A DNA stretch of 32,784 nucleotides. Source: a virus (taxonomy: Duplodnaviria; Heunggongvirae; Uroviricota; Caudoviricetes). Positions within the stretch are counted from its first letter, which is position 1; every line of letters starts with the position of its first letter. Both the position numbers and the translations under genes were made by a program. The DNA lies in the IMG/VR virus record IMGVR_UViG_3300045988_138410, positions 1-32,784 of that record. One strand, given 5' to 3'. This document shows, piece after piece, positions 31,218-32,784 of the stretch. A model generated the notes under the pieces. The model searched no databases and was not told the origin of the DNA. It saw nothing but the letters and a program-made list of their open reading frames with translations.

Positions 31218-31253
31218 TTTTCCCGGGTGCAGCCGGTTTTGATGGAGAAAATT

Positions 31254-31535
31254 ATGAACACCTTGTTTTTACTGATGGCTGAATTCAATACCCCAAATAT
31301 TGAACTCTCAGCAGTTAGCCAAAAGTACTTTGGTATGAGTCCAGCCACGGCAGAAGCAAAAGCAAACGCTTGTAAGTTGCCCGTTCCAACATATCGCATC
31401 GGCACATCACAAAAAGCAAAACGTTGCATCAATATTCAAGATCTTGCGGAATACATAGACAAAAGGCGAGAAGAAGGACGTATCGAGTGGGAACAGGTCA
31501 GAACAGTCAAACAGAAGGGCAAAGAACATCACTAA
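31254..31535 (+). CDS. Excisionase-like / PrtN-family small DNA-binding protein
   Basis: FNTPNIELSAVSQKYFGMS...AEYIDKRREEG pattern recalled from PrtN/Xis-like family; last gene before terminator. Confidence 0.5.
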   Translation: MNTLFLLMAEFNTPNIELSAVSQKYFGMSPATAEAKANACKLPVPTYRIGTSQKAKRCINIQDLAEYIDKRREEGRIEWEQVRTVKQKGKEHH

Positions 31536-31537
31536 AG

Positions 31538-31565
31538 AAAAAACCCGCCTGAAGGCGGGTTTTCA
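31538..31565. terminator. Bidirectional intrinsic terminator (ACCCGCC-TGAA-GGCGGGT, A-run upstream, T-run downstream)
   Basis: Hairpin flanked by AAAGAAAAAA and TTTTC; sits between convergent operons. Confidence 0.75.
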
Positions 31566-31582: not shown

Positions 31583-31756
31583 TCATGCTGCTTTGCGACG
31601 ACGAAGCTTACCCTGCTGCTCTTTACCAGAGACAGTAGCGTGAGTGAACGCATTAGGAGCAGCCTTCATCAGAACTTCAACAGCAGCACCCATACCTGCG
31701 AATGCTTTCATTGTGTCGAACTTAACCTGTGGCTTGGTTGCTTTTTGATCTTCCAT
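31583..31756 (-). CDS. Small 57-aa protein with basic C-terminal tail (below ORF-track cutoff)
   Basis: MEDQKATKPQVKFDTMKAFAGMGAAVEVLMKAAPNAFTHATVSGKEQQGKLRRRKAA; GGAG RBS 7 nt upstream. Confidence 0.45.
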   Translation of the reverse strand: MEDQKATKPQVKFDTMKAFAGMGAAVEVLMKAAPNAFTHATVSGKEQQGKLRRRKAA

Positions 31757-31795
31757 AGAAAACTCCAGAAGTTATACCGAAACAATTCCTGTTGT

Positions 31796-32215
31796 TTACT
31801 CATCATCAATAGATGATACGCAATATTTATTTTTAAATTTAAGGTTCTTTGGCGTAACTTCATCAGATATATCAAAACCGTCCAGAATTCTATTGAATGT
31901 AGCTTCTGGCATATCATCATGAACAGAAATCTCACCCGATTGCTGCTTTCTAACCATGTTATCCACTCGCCAAATTATAGCTTCAGCGTAAACAACATAA
32001 CTTGGATGCTTGATAAAGCGATGATCACCTGAATTCAAGACGCAAGACGGATCGTGGGGAACCCCATCCTTGATACTAGAAATATTAACAACTAAAACAC
32101 AATAACAATCGTTAACGGGGTAATAAACAGGATCATTACAAATCACATGAAGATGATTGCATGGCCCAGTTGGGGCAAGCACAGTTCCTTTCCTGTATGG
32201 CTGATAATCCGTCAT
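31796..32215 (-). CDS. Uncharacterised 139-aa protein, candidate toxin/effector partner of the Panacea-like gene
   Basis: 4-bp ATGA overlap with upstream gene; AT-rich codon usage; no family recognised. Confidence 0.55.
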   Translation of the reverse strand: MTDYQPYRKGTVLAPTGPCNHLHVICNDPVYYPVNDCYCVLVVNISSIKDGVPHDPSCVLNSGDHRFIKHPSYVVYAEAIIWRVDNMVRKQQSGEISVHDDMPEATFNRILDGFDISDEVTPKNLKFKNKYCVSSIDDE

Positions 32216-32784
32216 GATAATTGCAAAGAAAATTCCTTAAGTTTCTGAGATTCTTCCATTTTGCCAATTATGCGATTAGCCTCATCCTCGCTTTTACCCT
32301 CACTGATCAGCATTTCTTTCAGGTCTATAGGCTTACGAGAATTGCCAGGATTGTGCCACTCTGGACAAACGCTTTCTAAATGCGTCATGTTTGCGAGATC
32401 AAATCGGTTCATATGCCCATACAGAGAATAGATTTCATCTAAAATCCGGATATCTGCACGGCTCAACTCATCAAAGACCTCGTCTGCATCCATTTCCCTC
32501 GGATCTGAACGCAACAACACATCATGCCCGTTCGTCTCTATCAAGTTGTACCAGTAGTCACCAATGCCTTCAGCCTTACCACGAATCAAGTTCAGCGTAT
32601 TCGACATGACTGGACCAAATTTCATAGAGTAAAGGCTATCTTCGCCGATCATCCTGCCATGCTTCAAAATCGACTTGCGGTTAGACAGATAGAGCAGCTT
32701 CATCAATTTCAGATATGCCATGCGCCCACCTCGCTTAAGAAGTAGGTATGCAGCCATTTGAGCTACTTTTTCTTCGCAAAACAT
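32212..32784 (-). CDS. Panacea-domain (DUF4065, SocA/PanA-like) antitoxin-type protein; ATG at window edge
   Basis: N-terminus VAQMAAYLLLKRGGRMAYLKLMKLLYLSNRKSILKHGRMIGEDSLYSMKFGPV follows the A-Y-L...KLQKLLY...GPV pattern recalled for DUF4065. Confidence 0.6.
   Translation of the reverse strand: MFCEEKVAQMAAYLLLKRGGRMAYLKLMKLLYLSNRKSILKHGRMIGEDSLYSMKFGPVMSNTLNLIRGKAEGIGDYWYNLIETNGHDVLLRSDPREMDADEVFDELSRADIRILDEIYSLYGHMNRFDLANMTHLESVCPEWHNPGNSRKPIDLKEMLISEGKSEDEANRIIGKMEESQKLKEFSLQLS

Follow-up and report, generated by a model that had tools for sequence, protein, structure and literature searches.

At the right-hand end of the virus sequence IMGVR_UViG_3300045988_138410 (IMG/VR; Caudoviricetes), which we analyzed over its whole length of 32,784 nt (the window), three minus-strand open reading frames (ORFs) lie next to the early genes of the phage, and the question is whether they constitute a toxin-antitoxin (TA) module, which of them belong to it, and how its toxin would act. 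An initial annotation, made from the letters of the sequence, had proposed that a gene for a Panacea-like antitoxin of 190 amino acids (aa) overlaps a gene for a 139-aa partner and that a 57-aa ORF might be a third component. The three ORFs and the ATGA overlap were found as described there (Table 1). Our analysis indicates that the two overlapping genes, here termed panA and panT, probably form a type II TA module of the PanA-PanT class (toxin cluster T6) that is carried as a prophage cargo cassette. The overlap of panA and panT comprises 4 nt in the context ...tcATGAcgg..., which suggests that the translation of the two genes is coupled.

By its domain, the 190-aa protein is a clear member of the Panacea/PanA antitoxin family. 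The hidden Markov model comparison that the initial annotation had called for gave a score of 67.9 bits with Pfam PF13274 (SocA_Panacea, DUF4065; cut-off, 25.7 bits; E=1.8e-18), and the match covered PanA residues 27-137 and model positions 1-109 of 113. PanA also matched phrog_1281 (E=3.5e-26) and is labeled 'Panacea domain-containing protein' in RefSeq (WP_000458583.1). It is a stand-alone Panacea protein without an N-terminal extra domain and with an extension of about 50 aa at the C terminus past the Pfam domain. The same Pfam domain is found in SocA, the founding Panacea protein of the SocAB system of Caulobacter (type VI TA); however, PanA reached only 13.5 bits with the NCBIfam SocA equivalog, far below the cut-off of 190 bits. 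SocA works as a ClpXP adaptor and not as an inhibitor, and the toxin SocB binds DnaN and is not related to MazF.

The partner of PanA had been described as matching no known family and as a possibly undescribed effector, and neither description held. The name 'Panacea' for DUF4065 comes from Kurata et al. (2022, PNAS; PMC8832971), whose catalogue of partner toxins has 88 clusters; one of these, T6, they annotated as 'EndoA/PemK/MazF-family RNAses' (ribonucleases) via HHpred. Within the part of their Dataset S1 available to us, T6 pairs have the antitoxin-first order (A-T), mostly with a spacing of -4 or -1. For the T6 pair of Pseudomonas moraviensis, the same study reported that the toxin is toxic and specifically inhibits 35S-Met incorporation, i.e., protein synthesis, that PanA neutralizes it, and that the two proteins form a complex in a pull-down (PMC8832971). 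A genome scan with our PanT-family alignment returned 26 loci, and the family toxin at one of them, in Chimaeribacter coloradensis 2016-Iso4 (L013), was exactly WP_101821906.1, which the available part of Dataset S1 lists as the T6 toxin of 'Yersiniaceae bacterium 2016Iso4' (PMC8832971); the spacing of -1 at this locus also equals that of the listed entry. Because the window PanT is homologous to this listed protein (56% identity, E about 1e-49), we place it by sequence in the described T6 cluster, which has been validated in one member. Another T6 organism of those entries is Pantoea septica LMG 5345, in which a family member has the spacing of -4 given in the list. The PanA of Pseudomonas phage Sirocco starts with MIFSEQKVAQ, the N terminus reported for P. 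moraviensis PanA (PMC8832971); the partner of the Sirocco PanA and the window PanT share 49% identity. The window pair from E. coli itself was not among the Dataset S1 entries in the part available to us.

Several traits are common to the T6 pairs, including that of P. moraviensis, and the window pair: a stand-alone Panacea antitoxin encoded first, a PanA N-terminal pattern MF.E.KVAQMAAYLL, and an overlapping or abutting toxin gene (-4 or -1) whose product of about 130 to 140 aa lacks a CDD or Pfam match yet has a predicted MazF/PemK-like fold. The pairs differ in location: 'NotPhage' is the score given to the pair of P. moraviensis, and the window copy occupies a cargo slot in a lambdoid prophage of E. 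coli. Closeness to T6 was gauged via WP_101821906.1, while the nearest Pseudomonas relative compared was the one at 49% identity. The PanAT pair does not represent a new kind of system, as the pairing of Panacea with a MazF-fold toxin and the T6 cluster were described and validated in 2022 (PMC8832971); what is gained is a functional assignment for a gene pair that about 4% of complete E. coli genomes carry, among them that of enterotoxigenic E. coli (ETEC) H10407. A candidate assignment of PanT to cluster T1, which includes the pairs of E. coli MOD1 and Salmonella phage Emek, was rejected: comparison of the family profile with the Emek toxin by hhalign gave a probability of 0.15%, and PanT is thus taken to be unrelated to the T1 toxins.

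The fold of PanT was predicted confidently with AlphaFold2 from the family alignment (predicted local distance difference test [pLDDT] score, 91.4; predicted template modeling [TM] score [pTM], 0.85). The 46 best Foldseek matches in the PDB were all MazF or Kid (probability, 0.93-1.00; TM score, 0.39-0.66), the top matches in BFVD were labeled 'PemK-like protein' and 'Endoribonuclease', and only MazF, Kid, PemK, CcdB, and CptN appeared at the tops of the three structure libraries searched. Because all structure searches agree, the model assigns PanT to the CcdB/MazF fold, nearest to the RNase branch, and it contains the SH3-like beta-barrel and the C-terminal helix of this fold. PanT resembles MazF, Kid (PemK), and EndoA in fold alone, with sequence identities of just 9-17%. 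In comparison to MazF, it is longer (139 aa), has extra predicted helices at residues 84-93 and 122-131, and has the long S1-S2 loop replaced by a tight hairpin that joins strands 1 and 2. Its conserved set consists of His21, Asp55, Cys58, and His65, whereas E. coli MazF has Arg29 and Thr52, and its partner is a Panacea protein, whereas MazF-type toxins pair with MazE, Kis, or PemI.

Conservation of the pair across genomes bears out the proposal of a TA-like two-gene module. A Panacea gene was located directly upstream of the PanT homologue in all 30 judgeable loci; 28 of the upstream proteins were scanned with PF13274, every one of which matched, and two more were judged by inspection. These loci range from Enterobacterales to Alphaproteobacteria. 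Among them are five phages or prophages, each of a type unrelated to the others (Yersinia YeP1, a 14.5-kb Vibrio element, the P2-like Pseudomonas phage Sirocco, a Klebsiella phage, and a Helicobacter prophage), in which Panacea immediately precedes the PanT homologue while the other neighbors differ. An overlap of -4 was measured in 15 of the 30 related loci and a spacing of -1 in 2 more, and PanAT has the arrangement of a two-gene locus (gap of at most 100 nt, conserved across species). The identities of PanA and PanT to the window pair co-vary (Spearman coefficient, 0.84; n=27). In Pluralibacter/Kosakonia orthologues, the proportion of nonsynonymous differences (pN) was about 0.07-0.11 and that of synonymous differences (pS) about 0.76-0.80, giving a pN/pS of about 0.1 for both panA and panT, and comparison with phage Lys8385Vzw yielded omega values of 0.18 for PanA and 0.05 for PanT. 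Both genes are under purifying selection. The Vibrio element, phage 10N.239.311.H11_PE001 (L004 1-958, 14.5 kb), carries its same-family PanAT pair at the extreme left end. Although filed under Vinavirales, it has genes for an excisionase, a LexA-like repressor, and a P2 A-like replication protein, and it looks like a satellite or integrative element.

PanT had no match in Pfam, NCBIfam, PADLOC, or the PDB sequences, and it falls in phrog_19071, a group without assigned function. In Gammaproteobacteria, PanT has 63 close relatives by a word-indexed search, while an exhaustive profile search (E<=1e-3) recovered 2710 representatives at 50% identity, which marks the PanT family as a large one that lacks a Pfam model. 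Among 89 diverse members, H21 was invariant, and L22, D55, C58, G63, H65, F67, S72, Y76, G113, and S117 were conserved in at least 90%; the window PanT keeps every invariant or near-invariant residue of the family. The model of PanT in RefSeq, from the Prokaryotic Genome Annotation Pipeline (PGAP), is a 128-aa 'hypothetical protein' (WP_133253836.1; L001 8297-8683, an E. coli locus) that begins at an internal GTG. In 39 homologues, residues 1-11 are conserved, with M1 and P6 at 90% or more and G10 invariant. Since the conservation extends from the ATG, we judge the GTG start to be too late and the RefSeq model to be probably 11 residues too short. The GTG start of RefSeq/PGAP conceals the ATGA coupling of panT with panA. 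The 90%-identity cluster that holds the window proteins has 541 members and mixes PanA (190 aa) with PanT (139 or 128 aa), which presumably is an artefact of gene calling (overlapping or fused calls, e.g., a 232-aa PanA with an extended N terminus).

Table 1. Features at the right-hand end of the window
Feature	Position	Strand	Remarks
panA ORF, 190 aa	32212..32784	-	ATG is the last three bases of the window
panT ORF, 139 aa	31796..32215	-	MazF/PemK/Kid-fold toxin candidate, PanT cluster T6
ATGA overlap of panA stop and panT start	32212..32215	-	Read from sequence
In-window part of the swappable PanAT cargo cassette	31770..32784	-	Homology break vs mEp460
ORF57, 57 aa, phrog_2741	31583..31756	-	Phage-backbone gene
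Intrinsic terminator hairpin	31539..31564	-	11-bp stem, 6 GC pairs, T-run
PrtN/excisionase-like gene	31227-31535	+	PF11112, E=4e-23

The description of the locus as AT-rich prophage cargo was borne out by composition and by clean swap boundaries. The G+C (GC) content of positions 31583-32784 is 42.0%, compared to 51.0% for bases 1-31582, and hence is not uniform; same-size segments elsewhere have a mean of 51.0% (standard deviation, 3.3%) and a minimum of 42.5%, none being as low. The GC content of panT is 38.1%, below every 420-nt segment elsewhere, with 30.7% at third codon positions. As the initial annotation had stated, the three minus-strand genes converge on the early-left operon, whose plus-strand genes (a 3'-5' exonuclease gene and the PrtN/excisionase-like gene) meet them at the terminator hairpin. 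This hairpin had been called bidirectional. Its minus-strand half stood, as the 11 pairs are followed by a T-run on that strand and end the minus-strand unit, while a terminator scan of the plus strand did not call it. An Rfam scan of the region gave sub-threshold matches only, all to the terminator hairpin.

Sequences beyond position 32784 were traced through relatives of the window end; several E. coli chromosomes match this end at 100% identity across 1285 bp, and phages Lys8385Vzw and SKA5 match it at about 98%. In a four-way alignment, the PanAT carriers have about 195 bp of their own ahead of the panA ATG, before all elements come together again in a shared backbone beside attP. In the E. 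coli locus L001, this stretch of about 195 bp includes a GAGG Shine-Dalgarno sequence and, as a sigma-70-like element, TTGACC-17-TAAACT, in line with the earlier placement of the promoter outside the window, and a search of the panA upstream region for inverted repeats (operators) found none. PanAT is thus a self-contained cassette, about 1.2 kb long and including a promoter-like region, in a swappable slot. On one side the slot borders on the excisionase end of the early-left operon, on the other on the attachment site; the prophage is a lambdoid (mEp460-like) one of E. coli. In the three lysogens inspected, the prophage is integrated in dusA and ends about 250 bp past the panA start, at a 5' fragment of dusA, while in the free phage the integrase follows.

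The cassette resembles the moron or defence hotspots of temperate phages, with their variable cargo near int/att, in being AT-rich, with an own promoter-like region, conserved flanks, and unrelated replacements in sister phages; it differs in that PanAT has no PADLOC match or known defence phenotype. The position next to the attachment site of mEp460-like prophages (dusA-proximal in the lysogens inspected) is swappable and worth screening for defence or addiction genes. An alternative cargo is a 177-aa gene, which occupies the slot, from ORF57 to the dusA/att junction, in mEp460 (gp23; L035 2954-3487) and in O157:H7 PV15-279 (L036 3414-3947); it had no Pfam match and could be a further gene of the defence or TA type. 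ETEC H10407 has a 344-aa 'competence protein CoiA' gene (L037 1847-2881) between ORF57 and the PrtN/excisionase gene, which marks a second variable insertion point in an otherwise collinear prophage end. The orphaned 5' dusA fragment comprises 35 codons (L001 9539-9643, L036 4094-4198, and L037 4475-4579), is located directly upstream of the cargo genes in the same orientation, and presumably retains its native promoter; owing to this position, host dusA transcription could enter panAT by read-through. The free phage bears its own dusA-5'-like segment next to attP.

How would such a module work? We propose that panA and panT are transcribed from the cassette-borne promoter just beyond the window and that the ATGA overlap would couple panT translation to that of panA. 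By homology to the P. moraviensis T6 toxin, PanT would most likely shut down protein synthesis, probably as an endoribonuclease, while the stand-alone Panacea protein PanA would bind PanT directly and hold it inactive. Loss or displacement of PanA, which prophage loss or infection by another phage could trigger, would allow PanT to arrest the cell. What our analysis itself shows is the Panacea domain of PanA, the predicted fold of PanT and its homology to a T6 entry, the strict pairing of the genes, the purifying selection, and the limits of the cassette. By analogy to the validated T6 pair and to established MazF-fold toxins, we infer toxicity, RNase activity, and direct neutralization for the window pair; its biological role could be prophage addiction or abortive-infection defence.

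A number of results weigh against this proposal. The window PanT did not match PF02452 (PemK_toxin), and among the 89 family members searched in Pfam (E<=10) a single one did, with an E value of 0.11. Comparison of the PanT family by hhalign with two MazF profiles, one from a 3-sequence MazF/Kid/EndoA alignment and one from a 44-sequence MazF alignment, gave probabilities below 1%, and both runs aligned the C-terminal helix alone, nonsignificantly; the MazF and Kid sequences used had been checked as exact matches to PDB entries. A phmmer and profile search of the PDB sequences with PanT found nothing, and the canonical catalytic Arg and Thr of MazF could not be mapped onto PanT. No family of PADLOC-DB v2 was matched at E<=1 by PanA, PanT, or ORF57, and we found no anti-phage test of a T6 PanAT pair in the published literature. 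Finally, two other phage-borne enterobacterial pairs, those of cluster T1 from E. coli MOD1 and Salmonella phage Emek, gave the result 'not toxic' in the study that validated the T6 pair (PMC8832971), so that TA-like architecture does not guarantee toxicity.

Given that there is no sequence link to PF02452, the RNase assignment depends on the fold and the homologue described in the literature. The fold of MazF is also that of CcdB, and PanT might instead poison gyrase as CcdB does, or be some other toxin directed at DNA, and not inhibit translation as an RNase; with the RNase branch nearest to the model and translation inhibited by the P. moraviensis relative, we regard this as highly improbable. 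The pair might also not arrest growth in E. coli at all, with PanT being a nontoxic or conditionally active nucleic-acid-binding protein and PanA acting mainly for the phage, e.g., as an anti-toxin, an anti-defence factor, or a sensor. The nontoxic T1 pairs are in keeping with this alternative, as is the proposal of Ernits et al. (2023) that Panacea is primarily a sensor; however, co-inheritance and co-variation of panA and panT are strict, PanT is under strong purifying selection in the comparison with Lys8385Vzw, the residues proposed as catalytic (His, Asp, and His) are conserved, and the T6 relative is toxic (PMC8832971), which makes this alternative improbable. A further reading concerns the chemistry and role of the toxin. 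Judged by strand register alone, H21 falls where H28/R29 of MazF start strand 2, and S46/S47 fall where T52/T53 of MazF finish strand 3; both placements are only a lead. The T6 PanT family could represent a mechanistically distinct MazF-fold branch in which a His21/Asp55/His65 center, with or without Cys58, replaces Arg/Thr, and the pair could serve in abortive-infection defence, with Panacea sensing incoming phage. Such a center would make a different RNA target or chemistry possible, but as a whole this reading is a tentative one that we consider unlikely.

The remaining alternative is a three-component system in which ORF57 acts as a functional partner of PanAT, as the initial annotation had suggested. 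ORF57 is located 39 nt downstream of panT on the same strand, has its own GGAG ribosome-binding site, is not separated from panT by a terminator, and shares the terminator downstream; it is thus probably cotranscribed with PanAT. Several features nonetheless separate it from the pair. The homology of mEp460 to the window spans the excisionase end, the terminator, and ORF57 and stops at position 31769, i.e., 13 nt upstream of the ORF57 ATG, between the panT stop and the ORF57 start. At 98% identity, ORF57 is present in mEp460 and O157 PV15-279, where it adjoins the unrelated 177-aa gene. The ORF57 segment was found in 562 of 5426 complete E. coli genomes (about 10%), whereas the PanAT segment was found in 208 (about 4%), a difference of 354 genomes, and none of the 30 PanAT loci outside the mEp460-like backbone contained an ORF57 homologue. 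The GC content of ORF57, at 48.3%, is near the backbone value. Taken by its sequence distribution, ORF57, which matches phrog_2741 (E=8e-36), is a gene of the phage backbone and not a component of the PanAT module, and a role as third component is barely credible. The 57-aa protein itself has a hydrophobic or amphipathic center and a basic C-terminal tail, KLRRRKAA.
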